A stretch of 46,447 nucleotides of DNA from contig JAABRD010000041.1 of NCBI GenBank assembly GCA_011391085.1, positions 1 through 46,447 of the forward strand. The letters are read 5' to 3'. Below the pieces are notes generated by a model. That model searched no databases, had not been told where the DNA came from, and saw only the letters and a list, made by a program, of their open reading frames with translations. Positions within the stretch are counted from its first letter, which is position 1, and each line of letters opens with the position of its first letter. The translations under genes and the position numbers were made by a program. Shown piece by piece: positions 751-39,465 of this stretch. The stretch comes from Thiotrichaceae bacterium. GTDB lineage: Bacteria; Pseudomonadota; Gammaproteobacteria; Beggiatoales; Beggiatoaceae.

Positions 751-868
751 GGTAGTGATGCAATGTGGGTGATAACAGAGGCACTGGCTAATTGTCAGGT
801 TCGGCTAAACCTCCGAGGTCTTGAAGACCTCGGAGGTTTCTGGTTATCACCCAGATTGCATCACTACC
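751..868. mobile_element. MITE family A copy (22-bp TIR GGTAGTGATGCAATGTGGGTGA, inner palindrome CCTCCGAGGTCTTGAAGACCTCGGAGG)
   Basis: Perfect terminal inverted repeats at 751-772 and 847-868. Flanked by AAAAATTT/AAAAATCT (8-bp TSD with 1 mismatch). A solo TIR lies at 606-627. Confidence 0.8.
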
Positions 869-5145: not shown

Positions 5146-5678
5146 ATGTCTATCAAGAAGGAGGTCATTATGATGACTATAAAATGGCAACAACCCAAAT
5201 CCGCTTTCCTATGGCAAAGCAGTTTTGTTTTTCCCTCTGCCGGTGGTGGAGGTGGCACTGATGAGGAAATAGTGACTTTAGAATACGATATTAGTCGTTA
5301 CGGTTCTGATTACTATTCTTTCACCCCTGCGCAAAGTGACCCTGAACGGTAGTGATGCAATCTGGGTGAAATGTCTGAACTCTGATTAGAATGATTTTCA
5401 GATGGACTCTGATTAGTCAAGCCTCCTTTCATAGCCCTCATTTAATCATCTCAATCAAAGTTCAAGACCGACGCGAAACCTCTCGATATTTCACCCACAT
5501 TGCATCACTACCCCCTGAACTATGTCGAGTTGCCTGTCAAAATGACTCCAGATGTAAAGCTTTCAGTTACGTCAAACCAGACGCAACATGGCCTGGTAGT
5601 CCTCCTGCTTGTTGGTTGAAAGAGGCAGTCCCACCAGCGGCAAGTAGTTCTTGCTGTGTGTCAGGAGTGAAAATGTAA
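5146..5678 (+). pseudogene. Small PAN/apple-domain protein gene interrupted by MITE insertion (MITE 5348-5512; TSD CCCTGAAC at 5340-5347 and 5513-5520)
   Basis: Removing the 165-bp MITE plus one TSD copy joins ...TPAQSDPE to LCRVACQNDSRCKAFSYVKPDATWPGSPPACWLKE... in frame (PAN-like Cys pattern). A strong RBS AAGGAGG lies 5 nt before ATG 5170. The upstream frame terminates at TAG, which lies inside the MITE TIR. Confidence 0.6.
5348..5512. mobile_element. MITE family A copy (single 81-bp core unit) inserted in coding sequence
   Basis: TIRs GGTAGTGATGCAATCTGGGTGA / TCACCCACATTGCATCACTACC. Exact 8-bp direct repeat CCCTGAAC on both flanks. Confidence 0.85.
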
Positions 5679-6037: not shown

Positions 6038-9000
6038 ATGACATTACCTACTTTCTTTCGTACCAGCGTAGGCGGAATAAGTTGTTTCCTGCTATTCGCC
6101 CAACTTACCTTTGCCGCTTCACCGCCACCCAATGACCATTTGAGTGAGGCGACGGCGATTCTCGGTTTGCCTTACACTTCCACACCTCAAAATGTCGCCG
6201 CGGCTACTTTGGAACCCAACGAATCTATACGAAGTTGTACTAGTACAGCCAGCAATGACAGTGTGTGGTATCAATACACACCTACCACAAACCAAGAAGT
6301 TGCCTTTAACACTTTCGGTTCCAATTATGACACCGTCTTATCGGTGTGGACTGGCACAACTCATCCGCTAGTCGAACTGGGTTGCAATGATGACACCAGT
6401 GGAAATTATCAGTCCTTCGTGCATTTATTTTTAAGCACAGGAACGACCTACTACATTAACATCGCCAGCTTTTCTGGTATGACTGATGAGAATAGTTCAC
6501 TCGTCTTAACTGTCAACCTTCTCCTGCCAGCGGACAATGACAATTTAGCCAACGCCATTCAGGTCGCGACTCTACCTTATACTTCCGCCAACCCGTACCT
6601 TTGGCAAAGCCAAACCCTGGAAACTAGCGAAACCCCTCCCAGTTGTGCCCTAAATGGATATGCGAGTGTGTGGTATCAATATACACCAACTATCAACCAA
6701 ACCGTTTCATTTGCCGCAGATGCGCCGGTATTATCGATTTGGAATGGCACCACGCATCCACTGACTGAAATCACCTGTAACAACAGCATGGCTTCGGGTT
6801 CCCCTTCTTTTCCCTTAGACTTGATAGCAGGCACCACCTATTATGTCAATCTGGGAATCCCAGATTCATCAGCAGGCACAAGGACGTTAAACATCAGTGA
6901 GTTGACGCAAGCTGGCAATGACGATTGGGCCAATGCCACCCTTATCACCACGCTTCCCTACGAAGGAAAGCAACAGGCGCAATGGGCCAGTGCCGAAGAA
7001 CAGGAAGTCACCTCGAGTTGTGAGTGGGAAGAACAGCAAAGTAGTGTTTGGTATCAATACACACCAACCACCGACCAGATGATAAGTTTAGAAGGGACGA
7101 CGTTGGAGGAGACGGTGTGGTCGTACCCTACTAAGGAGATGACAGTCTCTGTCTGGAATGGCACAGGTCACCCGTTGACTGAATTGAATTGCGAACGTTT
7201 TGGGAGTGGTGACAACACTCCTTTCCTGTTGAGGCTGACCGCCGGAACAACTTATTCTTTCAAGGTCACTACCCAGCCTTCAGGGGTTCTTGATTTTGTG
7301 TTATCGGTTTCCCCAGTTACGCCACCAACGAATGATAATTTGGCCACTGCCACCGTCATTCCTACCTTACCCTATAGCAATACCTCTCAAGAAGTTTTCG
7401 GAAGTACCAACGAAGACCAGGAACTGTCTAGTGGTTGCGGAGAAAGCGGCGGTAGTGTGTGGTATCAATATACACCGACTCAAAATCAAACCGTGGTGCT
7501 TAGTGGTCTGTCAGAGTGGTCTGTGACAGTATCGGTATGGACCGGCACCACTCACCCTTTGACAGAACTGACTTGCCTGGGTTCCGGGAATCTGTTGAAA
7601 CTCACCGCAGGTACCACTTACTTTATCAAAGTGAGTGTCCCGTCTAATCAGAAATCGTTGGTCTCCTTTGAAGCCACCGAGGTGACTCCACCTAGCAATG
7701 ATGATTTGGCCAATGCCACCGTCATTTCTACATTACCCTATAGCAATACCTCTCAAGAAGTTTTCGGAAGTACCAACGAAGACCAGGAACTGTCTAGTGG
7801 TTGCGGAGAAAGCGGCGGTAGTGTGTGGTATCAATATACACCGACTCAAAATCAAACCGTGGTGCTTAGTGGTCTGTCAGAGTGGTCTGTGACAGTATCG
7901 GTATGGACCGGCACCACTCACCCTTTGACAGAACTGACTTGCCTGGGTTCCGGGGTTCTGTTGAAACTCACCGCAGGTACCACTTACTTTATCAAAGTGA
8001 GTGTCCCGTCTAATCAGAAATCGTTGGTTTCCTTTGAAGCTACCGAGGTGACTCTCCCTAGCAATGATGATTTGGTCAATGCAACCGTCATTCCTACATT
8101 GCCTTATGGTCATTCTCAAAGTACCCAATGGGCGACGGCAGAACTGGGCGAAGTTAGCTATGAACAAGCAACCTCTGAAAGTTGTGGAGGAAGTTGGGGA
8201 TGGGCATACTTTGAAGACAGTGTTTGGTATCAATACACGCCAGACCATGACCAACTGGTGGAATTTGACACTTTGGGTTCTAGTTATAACACGGTTCTCT
8301 CTATTTGGACAGGCACTGCCCACCCACTGACGGCCTTGGTGTGTAATGATGACGAATATGGCGTCTTCCTTTCCCAAGCCAACTTGAAACTGACCGCGCA
8401 CACCACCTATTATATCAGGGTGAATAGTGGCGCGTCGTGGAATGGCAGTGACATCGGCGGTATGTTAAATTTCTACGCCCAGGAAGTCTTGCCACCTAGC
8501 AACGATAACTTGGCCCAAGCCATTTCTATCACGTCCTTGCCTTATATCCATCGGCAAAACACCCAAGGGGCTAGTTTGGAAACCGAGGAGATGACAGCCA
8601 GTTGTGCGAAGTCGGAGACGGGAATGAGTGTGTGGTACAAATACACGCCTACCACTTCTGAAACGGTGCGGCTAGATACACAAACTTCCAGTTACGACAC
8701 GGTGTTATCGGTGTGGACTGGCCAACCGTTGACCGAAATCGCTTGTCATGAGGATTTGAGTGCCACTGATTCACAATCTAAACTCATCGTGACTTTGACG
8801 GCTGGCACCACTTACTTGATGAATGTCAGTGGGACTCGAAATGATTACTATCTGCCTATTTCTTCTGGTAACTTGGTGTTAACCGTTACAGCCAATGACC
8901 TTGAGTTAACGTCCCTGGGTCTCGCCAACATGATAGATGCACTGGGAAACCCGGTGACCTCCTCCACAGAATTTCTGGGCGGCATGTCAGTCAATGGCAA

Positions 9001-9385
9001 TGCTTACCAAGTGGAGGTGGTGCAAAATCTCGCTGATGAAGTAGAGATTTGGGGTAAAATGACAGTGGACCCTAACCATGTTGGCCAAACTGCCGACGTG
9101 GTCGTGTATGCGAGTTATCAATCGTCCACGTTGGCTTCTGAAGAATATTTCTACATGGTCGATAACCGCTATTCCATTTATGTTTGGGACCAGAACCCAG
9201 CGAATTTAATGGCCCTGCAAACGGTTCGGTTAGCACCAGAACAATGGCAAGCCCTTTATCGCGGACGTTTCCAAGTGCCTGGCGTGTTAAACATCTTCTG
9301 GGGGTATCGTCTGGCAGATGGGACAGTGGTGACCAGTGGTCAAGGATTGCAGGTGATGATTCATCGGCAGGTGAGTCAGTATTAA
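6038..9385 (+). CDS. Secreted protein with 8 tandem PPC (bacterial pre-peptidase C-terminal)-like domains and a C-terminal ~110-aa domain shared with two other proteins in the window
   Basis: Signal peptide. ~120-aa modules repeat the motifs NDNLANA..LPY, SVWYQYTPT, DTVLSVWTG..HPL.EL.CNDD, AGTTYY. C-terminal tail ...VDPNHVGQTADVVVYA...IFWGYRLADGTVVTSG. Confidence 0.85.
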   Translation: MTLPTFFRTSVGGISCFLLFAQLTFAASPPPNDHLSEATAILGLPYTSTPQNVAAATLEPNESIRSCTSTASNDSVWYQYTPTTNQEVAFNTFGSNYDTVLSVWTGTTHPLVELGCNDDTSGNYQSFVHLFLSTGTTYYINIASFSGMTDENSSLVLTVNLLLPADNDNLANAIQVATLPYTSANPYLWQSQTLETSETPPSCALNGYASVWYQYTPTINQTVSFAADAPVLSIWNGTTHPLTEITCNNSMASGSPSFPLDLIAGTTYYVNLGIPDSSAGTRTLNISELTQAGNDDWANATLITTLPYEGKQQAQWASAEEQEVTSSCEWEEQQSSVWYQYTPTTDQMISLEGTTLEETVWSYPTKEMTVSVWNGTGHPLTELNCERFGSGDNTPFLLRLTAGTTYSFKVTTQPSGVLDFVLSVSPVTPPTNDNLATATVIPTLPYSNTSQEVFGSTNEDQELSSGCGESGGSVWYQYTPTQNQTVVLSGLSEWSVTVSVWTGTTHPLTELTCLGSGNLLKLTAGTTYFIKVSVPSNQKSLVSFEATEVTPPSNDDLANATVISTLPYSNTSQEVFGSTNEDQELSSGCGESGGSVWYQYTPTQNQTVVLSGLSEWSVTVSVWTGTTHPLTELTCLGSGVLLKLTAGTTYFIKVSVPSNQKSLVSFEATEVTLPSNDDLVNATVIPTLPYGHSQSTQWATAELGEVSYEQATSESCGGSWGWAYFEDSVWYQYTPDHDQLVEFDTLGSSYNTVLSIWTGTAHPLTALVCNDDEYGVFLSQANLKLTAHTTYYIRVNSGASWNGSDIGGMLNFYAQEVLPPSNDNLAQAISITSLPYIHRQNTQGASLETEEMTASCAKSETGMSVWYKYTPTTSETVRLDTQTSSYDTVLSVWTGQPLTEIACHEDLSATDSQSKLIVTLTAGTTYLMNVSGTRNDYYLPISSGNLVLTVTANDLELTSLGLANMIDALGNPVTSSTEFLGGMSVNGNAYQVEVVQNLADEVEIWGKMTVDPNHVGQTADVVVYASYQSSTLASEEYFYMVDNRYSIYVWDQNPANLMALQTVRLAPEQWQALYRGRFQVPGVLNIFWGYRLADGTVVTSGQGLQVMIHRQVSQY

Positions 9386-11611: not shown

Positions 11612-12346
11612 TTACATAAAGACCTGTTCCAACCATTTTTTAAATCCTTTTATCTCCTCTGATTCCAAGTCTATCAAGGGAGATGGAAGTTGTGTCGATG
11701 GTAAAGGAGACCGCGACGCTTTAGGAAACAAATTAGCAAAAGACTGTCCCGGTGGGTTCTGCCAGGCCAACCAAGTATAAACCCCAGCCTTGGTTTGATG
11801 AAAGTCACTGAATAATTTTAACTCCTTGGGTAACTGATTGACACACTCGGTTGCATGTTCTAACAGTCTTTGTGGCTTCCCCTGACAAACCGCCGATTTA
11901 ATGAAGTCTTCTAACATGCCATCTCCTCTATGGTCAGGCATAATCCATAAACCGACTGGCGGGAGTCCACAATCATGTTGAAAAATATTTCCAACATAGG
12001 CTTGGTCAGGAGGAAGATTGATAATATAGTCCCTGTCCTGCTTTTGTAAAATATCTGTGACCGTTTTCCAACGTGCCGCAAACCCGCCATTGAGATTGGT
12101 ATAATCAGCATCAACCACAATGCCCAGTCGGTTGCGCGGATCGTCTCTAAGTCCCCTGAGTAAGACGGGCAATCTGCGAAGAACTCCCTTAATACCATCC
12201 TCATGCCCACCACACTCGGTTGGAGTTAACACCGGAATGTTAGGTTCGGGAAGTAACTGATTCAGCAAAATTTTGAAAAATTCCACATCGCGACCTCCTT
12301 CCACCAGCAGACGGACTTCTTTTTTGGGATTGTTTGTCTGTTTCAT
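11612..12346 (-). CDS. TOPRIM-like small protein (DUF4435/RloB-like); partner of upstream ABC ATPase; candidate antiphage effector
   Basis: N-terminal RLLVEGGRDVEFF (TOPRIM Glu) and GIVVDADYTN (DxD). The start ATG directly abuts the ATPase stop (TGAATG on the minus strand). Confidence 0.7.
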   Translation of the reverse strand: MKQTNNPKKEVRLLVEGGRDVEFFKILLNQLLPEPNIPVLTPTECGGHEDGIKGVLRRLPVLLRGLRDDPRNRLGIVVDADYTNLNGGFAARWKTVTDILQKQDRDYIINLPPDQAYVGNIFQHDCGLPPVGLWIMPDHRGDGMLEDFIKSAVCQGKPQRLLEHATECVNQLPKELKLFSDFHQTKAGVYTWLAWQNPPGQSFANLFPKASRSPLPSTQLPSPLIDLESEEIKGFKKWLEQVFM

Positions 12347-13510
12347 TCACCGTACCCCCAACTTATCTTGCGTGACTATTTGCAAGTCTTGTTTATCATA
12401 AATTGTAGCAATGACCTGACCCTTATTGGTAGTCCTGATACTACGGCCCAATCGGAAGAGAATAGTCTCCACTTCACTCTCTTCAGACACCCGCTGAAAA
12501 GCATCGATACAATCGTCGCTATGGGTGGTGGCAAAGACTTGAATGTTAAATTGCTTGGCCAGCGTGAAAATCAGTTCCCAAATGAGTGGCTGAATCTCGT
12601 AATGTAAACCATTTTCAAATTCGTCTATGAGTAGCAAACGACCTTTGGCTTTGATCAGATAGAGAAGCAATTGCAAAACTCGGCGCATACCATCTCCATA
12701 ACTCTTGAGTGGTTCAAGCTGTTCTTGCCCATTTCGTTTCACAAATGGTTTCCGTTCTCCTTCCAGATCACCGGTCACTTTCTTAAATGTCAGTCCTTCT
12801 ACACCGGGGTCAATCAGTTTGAGTCCGTCAATCACATATTGACCATACGTTAGATAAACGTCATCCCAAATATCGGCCAGTCGACGAGTCGGAATGAAAT
12901 CCACCGGCACGTAGTAATTGGAGAAATCCAAACCGATTTTTTGGAGTTCAAATTGACCGACTTTATAGTTGTCACGGTCATACGATTGAAAATCCAGCCA
13001 CACTTGCAAAACCCCTTGCAATTTGAGTCTGGAACGAATGGCTGGTAATTCTAATTGACGTTTTTTGCTACTGATTTTCAGGGCCTGGCGCACTCCTTCA
13101 AAAGAAGTCAATTCAGTTGGATCCAGTTCAGTTCTGACCCGGCGCCGAAAGAAGCCACCTTCCTGATCTTGTTCACTGTTTCCCAAAGTGAAATAGACCG
13201 ATTTGAGACTGACATATTCCGTTTGTTCTGAATTACCAATATAAATACTTTCCCCAGAGTCAGGAAAAGTACGATTTGTAAAGAAATTTTCAACTGCTAA
13301 AATCCCTTCACCAGTTTCGATTTCATCATGTTCTTTGAGAAGAGTTTCCAGCAAGAGGGGGGAACCTAAAGATTCATAAATTCGTAGGGCTTCCAAGACG
13401 CTACTTTTACCGGCATTGTTTTTGCCTACAATGAGATTGATTCGTCCTAGCTGTGGGATTTCGAGATCTTTTAGCAGACGAAAATTTTGGATTTTAAGGT
13501 TGGTTAGCAT
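12347..13510 (-). CDS. ABC/SMC-like ATPase (AAA_21/AAA_15 type); PARIS AriA-/AbiLi-/OLD-ATPase-like
   Basis: N-terminal LKIQNFRLLKDLEI..LIVGKNNAGKSSVLEAL (Walker A). Signature-like SYGDGMRR. Walker B LLLIDEFENGLH. H-loop ATTHS. Confidence 0.8.
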   Translation of the reverse strand: MLTNLKIQNFRLLKDLEIPQLGRINLIVGKNNAGKSSVLEALRIYESLGSPLLLETLLKEHDEIETGEGILAVENFFTNRTFPDSGESIYIGNSEQTEYVSLKSVYFTLGNSEQDQEGGFFRRRVRTELDPTELTSFEGVRQALKISSKKRQLELPAIRSRLKLQGVLQVWLDFQSYDRDNYKVGQFELQKIGLDFSNYYVPVDFIPTRRLADIWDDVYLTYGQYVIDGLKLIDPGVEGLTFKKVTGDLEGERKPFVKRNGQEQLEPLKSYGDGMRRVLQLLLYLIKAKGRLLLIDEFENGLHYEIQPLIWELIFTLAKQFNIQVFATTHSDDCIDAFQRVSEESEVETILFRLGRSIRTTNKGQVIATIYDKQDLQIVTQDKLGVR

Positions 13511-13522
13511 ATTGGAATTTTT

Positions 13523-14010
13523 AGTAGTGATGCAATCTGGGTGTACTGTCTGAACTCTGATTAGAATGATTTTCAGATGGACTCTGATTAGTCAAGCCTC
13601 CTTTCATGGCTATCATTTAATCATCTCAATCAGAACTCTGATTAGAATGATTTTCAGATGGACTCTGATTCGTCAAGCCTCCTTTCATAGCCCTCATTTA
13701 ATCATCTCAATCTGAACTCTGATTAGAATGATTTTCAGATGGACTCTGATTCGTCAAGCCTCCTTTCATAGCCTTCATTTAATCATCTCAATCTGAACTC
13801 TGATTAGAATGATTTTCAGATGGACTCTGATTAGTCAAGCCTCCTTTCATGGCTATCATTTAATCATCTCAATCTGAACTCTGATTAGAATGATTTTCAG
13901 ATGGACTCTGATTTGTCAAGCCTCCTTTCATAGCCCTCATTTAATCATCTCAATCAGAGTTCAAGACCAAGAGAAACCGCACGATATTTCACCCAGATTG
14001 CATCACTACC
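13523..14010. mobile_element. MITE family A copy with 5x tandem expansion of the 81-bp internal unit; 8-bp TSD GAATTTTT (13515-13522 / 14011-14018)
   Basis: TIRs (A)GTAGTGATGCAATCTGGGTG / CACCCAGATTGCATCACTACC. The internal unit GAACTCTGATTAGAATGATTTTCAGATGGACTCTGATTNGTCAAGCCTCCTTTCAT..CATCTCAATC repeats 5 times. Its left end lies 13 bp upstream of the ATPase start codon. Confidence 0.85.
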
Positions 14011-14156
14011 GAATTTTTGTTGTTATGGAAGTTAAAAACATAAGTAGTCAAGGTGCCGCCTGTCTCCTCTCTCCCTCTGGGAGAGGGGCCGGGGGGAGGG
14101 CCCGGTACTTAGTATTCTACCAAAATTAATTTAAGTCAATACTTAATTGAAATTCT

Positions 14157-14319
14157 GGTAGTGATGCAATGTGGGTGATATGTTTACCCTCACCCCCGGC
14201 CCCTCTCCCAGAGGGCGTGGGGAGAAAACCACTGGTGCCGCCGTTCCCCCCACGCCCTCTGGGAGAGGGGCCGGGGGTGAGGGAAACTCTATGAATATCA
14301 CCCAGATTGCATTACTACC
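14157..14319. mobile_element. MITE family A copy (GC-rich palindromic core variant); TSD GAAATTCT
   Basis: TIRs GGTAGTGATGCAATGTGGGTGA / TCACCCAGATTGCATTACTACC. Core CCCTCACCCCCGGCCCCTCTCC....GGAGAGGGGCCGGGGGTGAGGG. Exact 8-bp flanking repeat at 14149-14156 and 14320-14327. A core fragment also occurs at 14057-14100. Confidence 0.85.
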
Positions 14320-14468
14320 GAAATTCTGTGTATAAGGGGACAAATAAGACGATTTAAAATGTCATGGTCGGAGAGTCGCGCTGCCCGATCACTCCATAAC
14401 CCTCTCTTGAAACGGGTGGGGGAAGTGTTGGGACTGGCGGTCATTAAAAGACTGCCAGTCCTGCCTCA

Positions 14469-17400
14469 TCACCGAGTCACCCACCAATGCCACGGTGTGT
14501 TACCATTGAAAATCACCGTACCATTGCCTAGTCGATACCCTACATACAAGAATACTTCCCCGCCTGGTTGCAGTTCTCCAATCACTTCTGAAGTCACCAG
14601 TTTGAGAGTTTTGGAGACTGTGGCAGGTAGGCTGTCAAAGGCGTTGGCAATGGCCAGTTGTGATAAATTACCGGCCCACAGGCGCCACACAGGGGAGGTG
14701 GAGACACTGGCATCATAGGTGAAGAATTGACCTCCATAGGAGAATACGATGGCCAAAGTCGCGGCTTGTCCAACATGAGATGGGTCCACCTGAATATTTA
14801 GATTCGCGGTCACCACCGCGGTGGCAGCCACCGCTAAGTCATTTCCAGATTGGCCCGAAGAGGTACTGAGTTGCCCGGTAAAATGCGCCTTGGTGGTCAC
14901 ATCTTGACCATCAAACGAGATGCCAACACCGTTGTTACCCACCACGCGCAAGGGGAGGTTGCCATTGAAAACGAGGTTGCCAGTGGCGACGAGGCGATAA
15001 CCAACATAGATTAACGTTGTTCCTCTCGTTAACAGTTTGGCTGGTGTTAACTCTTCCGATAATTCCAAGAACGCTGGAAGTGAGGGGTACTCTTTGACAA
15101 CCACAAGGTCCGATAAGGTGAGACCGTCCCACGGTTGCCACACTTTTCCATCGTACTTCAGCCATTGTCCAGTTTCAATTTGTTTAGCTGCCATCAGTAA
15201 GTTGGCCGCTTGGCCGACATGCGCTGGGTCGGTGAAAAGGGACATCACGACCTTTTGAGTGGAATCGGCAGAGAGGCTAGTTCCGGGATAAAAGAAATAG
15301 GCGGTCGTGCCAATCAGATTACCTCCTGCATCTTTGGCCATGGCGGTTTCCGCTACTTCGTTGACACGGTCTGGGGTTTGACAAATGCCGTCGGTCTTGT
15401 TTGCTTTCTCACAATAATAGGCAAGTGTTTTAGGTTTCGTCACTTGAATTTTGACGGTTGCTTGACTGGCGCAGTCACTCAAGGTCAAGGTCGTTTTTCC
15501 TACCGCCCGCGGGGTCAAGGTTAAGAAGGCGCCACCTGTGTCTGGGAAGATGGGAATACTCATGGTTACGACTTTTCCATCGGGTGCCTGACTTAGCCAC
15601 CGGCTACTTTGACCGCCTGTGAATGCTAAGGTGAGAGGGGCTTCGCCCATTTCTAAGATGACTTCTTGTTGGGCTGGTTGCATGGCTAACGTAGAGTCAG
15701 TTTGACATTCCAGGTCAGTGCCGGTGTCGGTTTTAACCACGGTGATAGAGACCGTCGCTTGACTGGCACAATCGCTGATAGCCAATTCCGTTTGTCCCAC
15801 TTTTCGCGGAGTGAGAGTGACTAAGGCACCGCCATTTTCTAAAAAGGTCGGGGCTTGCATGGTGACGACGACTCCATCTGGCGCCTTGGATAACCAACGT
15901 TTTTCCTGTCCTCCAGAGAAAGCGAGAGTGAGGGGAACTTCGCCTTCGGACAACGTAATGTCTTGATGGGCGGGTTGTAACGCTAAGGTAGAATCGGTCT
16001 GACATTCTTCTCCTGGCGTGGGCGGAGTGACCTCAGCAGGTTGCACCGTGACCGTGACGACCGCTTGACTGTTGGCACAATCGGCCAGAATTAACTGCGT
16101 TTGGCCAGCTTTCACGGGGGTCAACGTGAGTTGAGTGCCTCCTTCTCCGGACGTTTCTAAAGCGGCCATCACCACTTCAACATCAGGAGATTGTTGAATC
16201 GTCACTTCACCTTGTCCACCGGTGAACGTTAGGGTGACAGATTCTCCCGTTTCCTTCAAGATGACGGTTTTCGACTGCGGTTGTAAAGCCAACGTTTCAT
16301 TGGCGGTGCATTGTCCTTCATTGTCATTGATAGTGACGACCACTTCGCCAGGCGTGCCTAATTCGACATTGCCGGAGGGAGAGGATAATTGGAGGCTAAA
16401 CGTTTCAGGTCCTTCCACTTCTTGGTCATCCAGAATCAAGATCGAAATGGATTTAGGTTGCGTCTCCCCGTCGGCCCAAGTTAAGGTGCCAGTCATAGCA
16501 GAAACGTAGTAATCACTGCCAACCAGGGCACTGCCATCGGTAATCGTGTAATCGATGGTGACGGTGCCTCGACTACTGCCAGTTCGAGTCACTGGGATGG
16601 TAATCAGAGAACCGGTCATATTGTCTAACGTGGCTTGGGTGCCATATTCGTCCACTGCCAGCGTGTCGATGCCAAATTGTAACTGACCAGGTTTCTCGGT
16701 GGTGACACCCAAGAGACTGACGATACGTCCATCTGGGTTGCCATCATCACCTCCTCCACCATCTTGCAGTGGCACAGTAGCTAACGTTGCGGGATTACCT
16801 CCCACGGTGGTGGCTTCCAAAGTGGCTTGTGTCAGGGTCTGCCATTGGGGTGAAGAGGACGCTTGATAGGAACGGTATAACCCGCTGGTGAGGGTGCTGT
16901 CACCATGATAATATAACAAGAGGTCCGCTGTGGAACAGGGTAATTCCAAACTGATTAGGTCTTTAGGAAAATCATAGTCGGCATCTGAAGTCGGTATGGC
17001 ACTTTCGGTTTGCACTTGAACTTGTTGGAGGACACAACGGGCGTCTTTGACGGCGACGGTGAGATAATCTTGGCCATTACGGAGTAACAGGGAGGCCACG
17101 GCACCTTGTTGACTGTCTAGTACGCCATCACCATTGCCATCCCCGCCATTGGGGGCTGCGTCTTCCAGGTAGTTTAACACGCCATCTTGGTCTTGGTCTT
17201 CGCCATTGCCTACCACGTCAACGGTAATCGTCTTTTCAAAGGTCAGGCCACCGCTGTCTGTCACTTGCACTTTGAGAGAATAGTTCCCCACGGCCAGCGG
17301 CGCATCCACGGCCGTTTGTAAGAGATCGCCGGTGATGACAAAATAGGTGGACGCATCTTCTAGCAAGGTATACGAATGCGTGTCTGACGGGTCCTCATCG

Positions 17401-20093: not shown

Positions 20094-20148
20094 GGTAGTG
20101 ATGCAATCTGGGTGATATGTTTACCCTCACCCAGATTACATCACTACC
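20094..20148. mobile_element. Minimal MITE family A copy (TIRs only, 55 bp)
   Basis: GGTAGTGATGCAATCTGGGTGATATGTTTACCCTCACCCAGATTACATCACTACC, located 43 bp upstream of the giant adhesin start codon. No TSD recognised. Confidence 0.7.
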
Positions 20149-27080: not shown

Positions 27081-27206
27081 TAGGGTGGATTAAGCGAAGC
27101 GTATCCACCTACGGGTCTTAATCCACCCTACTCAAATGGTGGATACGCTTCGCTTAATCCACCCTACTCAAATGGTGGATACGCTTCGCTTAATCCACCC
27201 TACTCA
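27081..27206. repeat. Palindrome plus 2x tandem 36-bp repeat (AATGGTGGATACGCTTCGCTTAATCCACCCTACTCA) immediately upstream of the vault-protein gene
   Basis: An inverted copy (TAGGGTGGATTAAGCGAAGCGTATCCACC) is followed by two direct 36-bp units. This creates a spurious in-frame N-terminal extension (MVDTLRLIHPTQ x2) of the following ORF. Confidence 0.8.
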
Positions 27207-27228
27207 CTATTATTCACCATTCACCAAT

Positions 27229-39300: not shown

Positions 39301-39465
39301 GGTAGTGATGCAATGTGGGTTCTTTGTCTGAACTCTGATTAGAATGATTTTCAGATGGACTCTGATTAGTCATAGCCTCCTTTCATGGCCATCATTTAAT
39401 CATCTCAATCAGAGTTCAAGACTAAGAGAAACCGCACGATATTTCACCCAGATTGCATCACTACC
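39301..39465. mobile_element. MITE family A copy (81-bp core type); TSD GATTATTG
   Basis: TIRs GGTAGTGATGCAATGTGGGTTC / TCACCCAGATTGCATCACTACC. Exact 8-bp repeat at 39293-39300 and 39466-39473. Located between divergent genes. Confidence 0.85.

Follow-up and report, generated by a model that had tools for sequence, protein, structure and literature searches.

A 46,447-nt contig of a Thiotrichaceae bacterium from the family Beggiatoaceae (JAABRD010000041.1 of assembly GCA_011391085.1; the whole stretch is referred to here as the window) was analyzed for a 488-bp MITE (miniature inverted-repeat transposable element) located directly upstream of a gene pair that encodes an ATPase and a DUF3226 protein. 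The MITE is a true, lineage-specific insertion, and a MITE-free version of the same site was detected in a close relative. We consider it likely that an IS1-derived MITE was recently inserted into the leader of this operon, that its internal core was amplified to five units, that no ribosome-binding site (RBS) was lost, and that the insertion is tolerated with the operon expressed.

Occupied and empty sites upstream of the ATPase gene

The closest homologue of the ATPase was P0001 (94% identity), which is encoded with the same DUF3226 partner on the 2.1-kb Logan contig L001 (SRR26046680). The original prediction had proposed a comparison of orthologous loci for an empty site, and a MITE-free site was present on this metagenomic contig, where it reads CATAACAAC-AAAACTTC-CAATATG. 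By alignment, the L001 sequence CATAACAACAAAACTTCCAATATG was found to equal that of the window minus the MITE and one copy of its target-site duplication, with the two loci colinear through the start codon. When both are written in the same orientation, ...TTTTCATAACAACAAAACTTCCAAT-ATG of L001 corresponds to ...CTTCCATAACAACAAAAATTC-(MITE)-AAAAATTC-CAAT-ATG of the window, and the left copy of the duplication aligns with the lone AAAACTTC of the empty site. No element was detected at this position in the 83%-identical orthologues (L002-L009).

The right arm of the 488-bp copy differed from that of a single-unit copy at 39301 at only 1 of 57 positions, as counted from the printed sequences. The 39301 insertion is common to a relative represented by contig L026 (SRR14556214), in which the duplication (GATTATTG) is the same and the neighbouring protein is 95% identical; between these two orthologous copies roughly 8 of the 57 positions differed, as estimated by eye and not computed. 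Thus, the empty orthologous sites, together with a right arm that is nearly identical to that of 39301 while the shared 39301 insertion is more diverged between lineages, argue for a fairly recent insertion at the ATPase gene and not for an excision in L001. The MITE transposed into the AT-rich 5' leader of the ATPase and DUF3226 operon after the split from the relative with the 94%-identical ATPase, giving an 8-bp duplication of the type typical of IS1. Its position probably reflects a preference for AT-rich targets and not selection for a regulatory role.

IS1-type ends and the 81-bp tandem core

The coordinates of the element, the positions of its duplication, its 488-bp size and its five 81-bp units were recovered as originally predicted when inverted repeats, Tandem Repeats Finder (TRF) and the sequence itself were inspected (Table 1). 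Between the element and the first base of the ATPase start codon (ATG at 13510-13508, minus strand) there are 12 nt. Its 22-nt ends, AGTAGTGATGCAATCTGGGTGT and the reverse complement of TCACCCAGATTGCATCACTACC, match at 20 of 22 positions. The 20-nt core of the inverted repeat was found 18 times in the window with up to three mismatches, compared to no occurrence in 100 dinucleotide-preserving shuffles. No transposase gene was detected in the 488-bp element: no open reading frame (ORF) in it is longer than 79 aa, and the 81-bp unit is interrupted by stops in each of its six frames. A coding or translational-coupling role as in MIRUs, considered because 81 equals 27 x 3, was ruled out by these stops. 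In Rfam, neither the gathering threshold nor a limit of E <= 1 gave a match within 13523-14010; sub-threshold matches to miRNA hairpins were confined to the neighbouring GC-rich MITE.

The ends of the family (also written GGTAGTGATGCAAT) read GGTAGTG, which fits the pattern GGnnnTG, and perfect 8-bp duplications were present in 9 of the 17 paired elements examined. The duplications were AT-rich (GAATTTTT, GAAATTCT, GATTATTG, GAAAACTG, GAAAAATT, CAAATCTG and CGTAATTC), and the members spanned 55-488 bp without a transposase gene. As IS6 elements also have GGnnnTG-type ends and an 8-9-bp duplication, both traits are insufficient alone for an assignment to IS1. On contig L024 of Candidatus (Ca.) Thiomargarita nelsonii, 802 bp (347-1148) are enclosed by two copies of the inverted repeat with the same ends as the MITE, and three-frame translation of this element revealed a frameshifted IS1-type transposase. 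The stitched pieces matched DDE_Tnp_IS1 (7.3e-19; 68.9 bits, Pfam cut-off 24.1) and Zn_ribbon_InsA (29.2 bits, cut-off 26.1). The ISfinder descriptors of IS1, namely a length of 740-1180 bp, 8-9-bp direct repeats, GGnnnTG ends, two coding sequences and a DDE transposase (PMC10425158; also noted in PMC6807381), all agree with what was found. Taken together, these results show that the MITE family derives from an IS1-family insertion sequence (IS). Derivation of the MITE interior from the interior of the IS1-like element was considered and rejected, as the local alignment score was 22 compared to 19.6 +/- 2.3 (maximum 27) in shuffles. No IS1 transposase ORF was detected in the 46-kb contig. By exact-pattern scan of GTDB species genomes, the family repeat was found in a sulfidic-cave Thiomargarita sp. 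metagenome-assembled genome, in Ca. Parabeggiatoa and in Ca. Thiomargarita nelsonii.

The tandem core was reported by TRF at 13549-13955 (period 81, 5.0 copies, 95% matches, score 737). When the unit was compared to the window by BLAST, it was detected in just three elements, at 5348-5512, 13523-14010 and 39301-39465, with 1, 5 and 1 units, respectively. The proposal that the internal unit is variable in copy number thus held, and the copy at 39301 had been absent from the original prediction. By pairwise mismatch matrix, the five units were found to vary at five columns in a coherent order, with a 243-bp super-period across the array. Units 1 and 4 were identical, units 2 and 5 had 2 differences, and unit 5 was 1 change from the single-copy element at 5348. 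Based on the identity of units 1 and 4 and the near identity of units 2 and 5, we infer that the array grew stepwise and that its last step copied a block of several units.

The single-unit element was predicted to form one long hairpin (DNA fold of -34.7 kcal/mol, z = -7.3), within which CTCTGATTAGAATGATT, at the 5' side of the unit, is paired with AATCATCTCAATCAGAG at its 3' side. Where units follow each other in tandem, the 3' side of a unit may instead pair with the 5' side of its successor and form a local hairpin at each junction, which would be a natural substrate for slippage. The ancestral element would have carried one 81-bp core between arms that pair into the long hairpin, and the core of the 488-bp copy would have been raised to five units by slipped-strand or unequal recombination. 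Tandem arrays with units of 25-150 bp were common in the intergenic DNA of the related genomes fetched, a general habit that the amplification of the core fits. Exact patterns of 26-28 nt from the 81-bp core gave zero matches in GTDB genomes, JGI metagenomes and IMG/VR, and the lone external trace of the core was Logan contig L026, which is broken inside it.

Start codon, leader and expression of the ATPase operon

According to the original prediction, the MITE occupies the place of the RBS of the ATPase gene. This was not borne out, as the MITE-free orthologue reads CATAACAACAAAACTTCCAAT-ATG without a Shine-Dalgarno (SD) sequence, and through the target duplication the 12 nt preceding the ATG are the same as before the insertion; thus, the insertion displaced no RBS. 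These 12 nt had been placed between the duplication and the ATG in the original prediction, but they extend from the MITE to the ATG: 8 nt of them are the duplication itself, which is followed by just 4 nt (CAAT) and the start codon. A well-placed SD sequence was not detected in the 83%-identical orthologues either. Among the 22 long ORFs of the window, an SD-like core was missing from the 30 nt next to the start in 19, and was at a plausible distance in only two or three, counts that are approximate since the ORF starts were assigned mechanically. These numbers suggest that initiation is mostly SD-independent in the source genome. As starts without an SD sequence are the rule in this contig, a missing SD sequence beside the insertion is no evidence of disruption in this lineage.

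The accessibility of the start codon was predicted in silico for a leader that originates at the native promoter. Positions -12 to +12 had a mean unpaired probability of 0.74 with the MITE compared to 0.63 without it. Positions -20 to -13 had an unpaired probability of 0.01 with the MITE compared to 0.37 without it, and are locked in the inverted-repeat helix.

The gene pair downstream of the MITE was kept in all orthologous loci (L001-L009). The ATPase matched PDC-M38A of PADLOC over its full length (1.8e-110) and AbiLi (2e-50), where the PADLOC prefix PDC denotes a candidate system. The pair is a candidate defence system (PADLOC PDC-M38, AbiL-like) with an OLD/ABC-type ATPase at its centre. 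For the DUF3226 protein, no meaningful sequence match was found in the PDB and no match in NCBIfam. The closest named homologue of the ATPase was from Ca. Parabeggiatoa (67%), which, together with the genomes in which the family repeat was found, makes a Beggiatoaceae host most likely. Exact look-ups of the ATPase and of a 920-aa cyclase of the window gave no record, in a collection that does not return the window contig itself. The ATPase is full length relative to its orthologues, and both ORFs are intact without frameshift or stop. Compared to L001, the ATPase had a ratio of nonsynonymous to synonymous substitution rates (dN/dS) of 0.11 at a dS of 0.28. The two genes thus appear to be under purifying selection, which is compatible with continued function.

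A native promoter-like site was detected about 60-70 nt from the ATG in L002, L003, L007 and L009, compared to about 600 nt upstream in the window. Three insertions have struck the control region of the window, namely a ~68-nt GC-rich module, the 488-bp MITE and a 163-bp GC-rich MITE. The operon is most likely still expressed despite the MITE, as judged from sequence, and two routes may be envisaged. By the first, transcripts would read through from the conserved native promoter (14139-14111) and carry a structured leader of about 590 nt, compared to about 75 nt in the orthologues. The RNA fold of this leader was -173 kcal/mol (z = -5.65), and its sense RNA contains 15% C. No intrinsic terminator-like site was found on the minus strand in 13300-14600; an intrinsic terminator inside the MITE on this strand had been considered, and none was found by scan. 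By the second route, transcription would start at about 13559 from the TTGACN-18-AATCAT motif of the gene-nearest unit and give an open leader of about 50 nt that lacks the partner inverted repeat.

The second route leads to the proposal that the MITE drives the operon, with its repeated motifs acting as outward promoters and the number of units setting expression in the manner of a rheostat, like Correia or BOX elements. We regard this as possible but doubtful. The motif TTGAC(T/G/A)-18-AATCAT is present in 5 of 5 units on the ATPase strand, resembles the native TTGACT-17-AATACT, and in the gene-nearest unit would yield transcripts without the upstream inverted-repeat arm and hence with an open leader. 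Correia, MITEAba12 and further MITEs have documented sigma-70 promoters (review, PMC10969869), and boxA and boxC stimulate downstream genes while boxB can inhibit them, depending on orientation (PMC3049150). By contrast, the match is weak, with 9-10 of 12 consensus positions by pattern match only, a -10 hexamer of AATCAT and an 18-nt spacer. The 1.3-kb region had 8 promoter-like sites compared to 2.2 +/- 1.3 in shuffles, but five of the 8 belong to one repeated unit and constitute a single observation. In addition, the -35 region of the 39301 copy is interrupted by one extra nucleotide, and among the three copies available no statistical orientation bias is evident.

Silencing or strong attenuation of the operon is rather unlikely. 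In this case the structured insert would block elongation, or the helix at -13 would block loading of the 30S subunit, and the gene pair would be in the course of becoming a pseudogene. The lengthening and stable predicted fold of the leader and the confinement of positions -20 to -13 in a helix are consistent with silencing, as are the two further repeat insertions in the same control region (14043-14110 and 14157-14319). By contrast, no intrinsic terminator-like site is found on the ATPase strand, the low C content was judged by us to make the sense RNA a poor substrate for Rho, positions -12 to +12 remain open, and no SD sequence was lost. Both ORFs are also full length, although the insertion may be too young for decay and their integrity therefore counts little against silencing.

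It is improbable that the five-unit array, or the number of its units, is an artefact in which short reads were over-expanded or mis-joined from an element of one or two units. The 46-kb contig is likely of metagenome origin, the identical units 1 and 4 and the super-period could come from a looped assembly graph, and the Logan contigs of relatives break within the core. By contrast, the five variable positions are in coherent order across the units, the flanks, inverted repeats and duplication are intact, and arrays of 25-150-bp units are common in the intergenic DNA of related genomes. A view of the 81-bp module as a self-amplifying regulatory cassette, by which gain and loss of units through slippage would heritably and reversibly tune the defence expression of a potentially toxic abortive-infection-type operon among the many genome copies of a giant polyploid sulfur bacterium, is very improbable; each unit would then add, immediately before the operon, a promoter-like site plus an 11-nt direct repeat (ACTCTGATTAG) that might bind protein. 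An element that is ancestral at the site and was lost from L001 by precise excision between the 8-bp direct repeats is the least credible of these explanations. In its favour, such excision is known, as a rare event, for IS and MITE insertions, and a single empty-site sequence (L001) is available. By contrast, the 83%-identical orthologues lack any element at this position, and the right arm is nearly identical to that of another contig copy, while the shared 39301 insertion diverged far more between lineages.

Several points weigh against a recent, IS1-derived and tolerated insertion with the operon expressed. In read-through transcripts, the predicted 21-bp inverted-repeat helix abuts position -13 and overlaps the upstream part of the 30S footprint, and could thus lower initiation. 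The dN/dS value is dominated by the history before the insertion, and the exact count of five units rests on the assembly of the contig. The IS1-like parent is known from another species and is itself degenerate, and the interior of the MITE has no significant similarity to the IS of L024.

Related elements, other repeats and known systems

The window includes five further elements with the same ends and other interiors (Table 1), which suggests that these ends carry several unrelated hairpin cargos.

Table 1. Positions of the 488-bp MITE, its parts, its neighbourhood and related elements in the window
Feature	Position	Strand	Basis or remark
Whole non-autonomous element, IS1-family MITE, 81-bp-core subfamily	13523..14010	+	488 bp; inverted repeats, duplication, tandem core
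Target-site duplication, left copy GAATTTTT	13515..13522	.	AAAAATTC in ATPase sense, -12 to -5 from ATG
Target-site duplication, right copy GAATTTTT	14011..14018	.	perfect 8-bp match to left copy
Left terminal inverted repeat AGTAGTGATGCAATCTGGGTGT	13523..13544	+	2 changes compared to family consensus GGTAGTGATGCAATCTGGGTGA
Right terminal inverted repeat, GGTAGTGATGCAATCTGGGTGA read inward	13989..14010	-	IS1-type end GGnnnTG
Five head-to-tail 81-bp units	13549..13953	+	starts 13549, 13630, 13711, 13792, 13873; TRF, unit listing, mismatch matrix
Gene-facing promoter-like motif closest to the ATPase, TTGACT-18-AATCAT	13566..13595	-	consensus scan
Repeats of the promoter-like motif, one per unit	13647-13676, 13728-13757, 13809-13838, 13890-13919	-	
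GC-rich palindromic module, ~68 nt	~14043..14110	.	in leader just after -10 hexamer; absent in orthologues
Native promoter-like site TTGACT-17-AATACT	14111..14139	-	consensus scan; alignment with L002, L003, L007, L009
Second MITE, same inverted-repeat family, GC-rich core	14157..14319	+	duplication GAAATTCT; ~10 nt upstream of -35 hexamer
AAA_15/AAA_21 ABC-type ATPase, 387 aa, first gene of pair	12347..13510	-	Pfam AAA_15 6e-28, AAA_21 5e-23
DUF3226 protein, 244 aa, second gene, abuts ATPase stop	11612..12346	-	Pfam DUF3226 5e-45; PADLOC PDC-M38B 5.8e-58
Single-unit copy, 81-bp-core subfamily	5348..5512	+	duplication CCCTGAAC; inside PAN/Apple-like coding sequence
Single-unit copy, 81-bp-core subfamily	39301..39465	+	duplication GATTATTG; insertion common to L026 orthologous site; absent from original prediction
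Elements with GC-rich palindromic cores	14157-14319, 31680-31833, 36262-36420		same ends as 488-bp MITE
118-bp element with a different hairpin core	751-868		same ends
55-bp minimal member	20094-20148		barely more than two inverted repeats
Elements with perfect 8-bp duplications	13523, 5348, 14157, 31680, 39301		also L011, L016, L019, L023

The copy at 5348-5512 interrupts a coding sequence: when the MITE and one copy of CCCTGAAC were removed, a continuous PAN/Apple-like frame of 129 codons that ends ...CRVACQNDSRCKAFSYVKPDATWPGSPPACWLKEAV... was obtained. The 39301 copy is located between two divergent genes, which encode a Uma2-family endonuclease (ATG at a distance of 69 nt) and a Cache-cyclase-receiver protein (ATG at 132 nt). 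At 606-868, two left-end repeats (606 and 751) were found with one right end (847), and may represent either one insertion nested in or in tandem with another, or a solitary end beside the complete 118-bp element. The 55-bp member is 43 nt upstream of the ATG (20051) of a 1860-aa cadherin-like repeat protein, and no clean duplication was seen. The GC-rich palindromic module (CCGGCCCCTCTCCCAGAGGG...) serves as a MITE core and is also found alone at 14043-14110 without inverted repeats of its own; by eye, this solitary module resembles the core of the GC-rich MITE subfamily, and its boundaries are approximate.

Repeats were also found upstream of orthologous ATPase genes. On L002 (5643-5837), upstream of an 83%-identical ATPase, a diverged family repeat (GATAGTGATGCCATTTGGGTGA) is followed by 2.7 tandem copies of a 43-bp hairpin unit (97% identity); a right-hand repeat was not found. 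On L007, a Baltic Sea metagenome contig, an element of the hupL-MITE family with ends CAATGCCATTAAGTTAAG was detected at about 1125-1260 upstream of the orthologous ATPase. The control region of the ATPase operon draws repeats in more than one lineage.

Elsewhere in the window, a 901-aa ORF (27136-29841, plus strand) matched all Pfam domains of the Major Vault Protein (MVP) of eukaryotes, including Vault (5.6e-69), MVP_shoulder (1.2e-51), Vault_2, Vault_3 and Vault_4, and is thus a bacterial homologue of MVP over its full length. The start of this ORF is overlapped by a perfect tandem repeat of 2.5 copies of 36 bp (27117-27206). Within a 1115-aa secreted repeat protein (6038-9385), 2.1 copies of a 366-bp unit with 96% identity were found (7331-8107), showing that a 122-aa domain was recently duplicated in frame.

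Compared to IS1 insertion sequences, the MITE has similar GGnnnTG ends, an 8-bp duplication and AT-rich insertion sites, and its ends recur on an ~800-bp element that codes for a zinc ribbon of the InsA type and for an IS1 DDE transposase with a frameshift. By contrast, the MITE shares only the ~22-nt ends with this element, its interior is unrelated, and the lone IS copy found, that of Ca. Thiomargarita nelsonii, is degenerate. The family also differs from MITE derivatives of IS1 in that several unrelated palindromic cores (AT-rich 81-bp, GC-rich and the 55-bp minimal form) are carried on these ends.

The closest known architecture appears to be that of the pneumococcal BOX elements, boxA-(boxB)n-boxC. 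Both are MITE-like interspersed repeats of intergenic or leader location that have terminal modules and a central tandem module differing in number between copies, and in both the repeated module is predicted to add little to the outer stem. The resemblance is of architecture only, presumably without a sequence relationship and with a host of another phylum; boxB is about 45 bp, much shorter than the 81-bp unit, and the MITE described here belongs to a gammaproteobacterial sulfur oxidiser and has clear IS1-type ends with 8-bp duplications. The number of boxB modules varies, and the expression of neighbouring genes can be influenced by BOX (Croucher et al. 2011, PMC3049150). MITEs that bear promoters, among them the Correia/NEMIS elements of Neisseria (PMC10969869), are likewise small, bounded by inverted repeats and located just upstream of a gene with sigma-70-like hexamers facing it. 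However, the promoter activity of Correia elements has been demonstrated, compared to a pattern match in the 488-bp MITE, and Correia elements have no tandem core.

Two MITEs described for Ca. Thiomargarita nelsonii, those of hupL and of the dsrA intron, come from the same bacterial family, in which MITEs are very numerous and include gene-disrupting insertions (PMC4853749); the 5348 copy likewise splits a coding sequence. With ends of TCAATGCCATTAAGTTAAG and direct repeats of 10 bp (Flood et al. 2016, PMC4853749), the hupL MITE differs from the 488-bp family. Identity of the latter with the hupL MITE or with a RepeatModeler family of that study was ruled out, as the ends differ and the 488-bp family is absent from the text and supplements of the paper.

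Mobile elements are known to abound in Beggiatoaceae genomes, and the MITE family of this study was previously undescribed. The locus provides a clean, dated case of an IS1-derived MITE in the control region of a candidate defence operon, with the parental IS type identified as well as the site in its occupied and empty states. As it stands, the element is an ordinary genome parasite in an ordinary location. If its amplified core does affect transcription, it would represent a second, independent instance of the BOX-type architecture, in which internal modules of variable number act on neighbouring genes.

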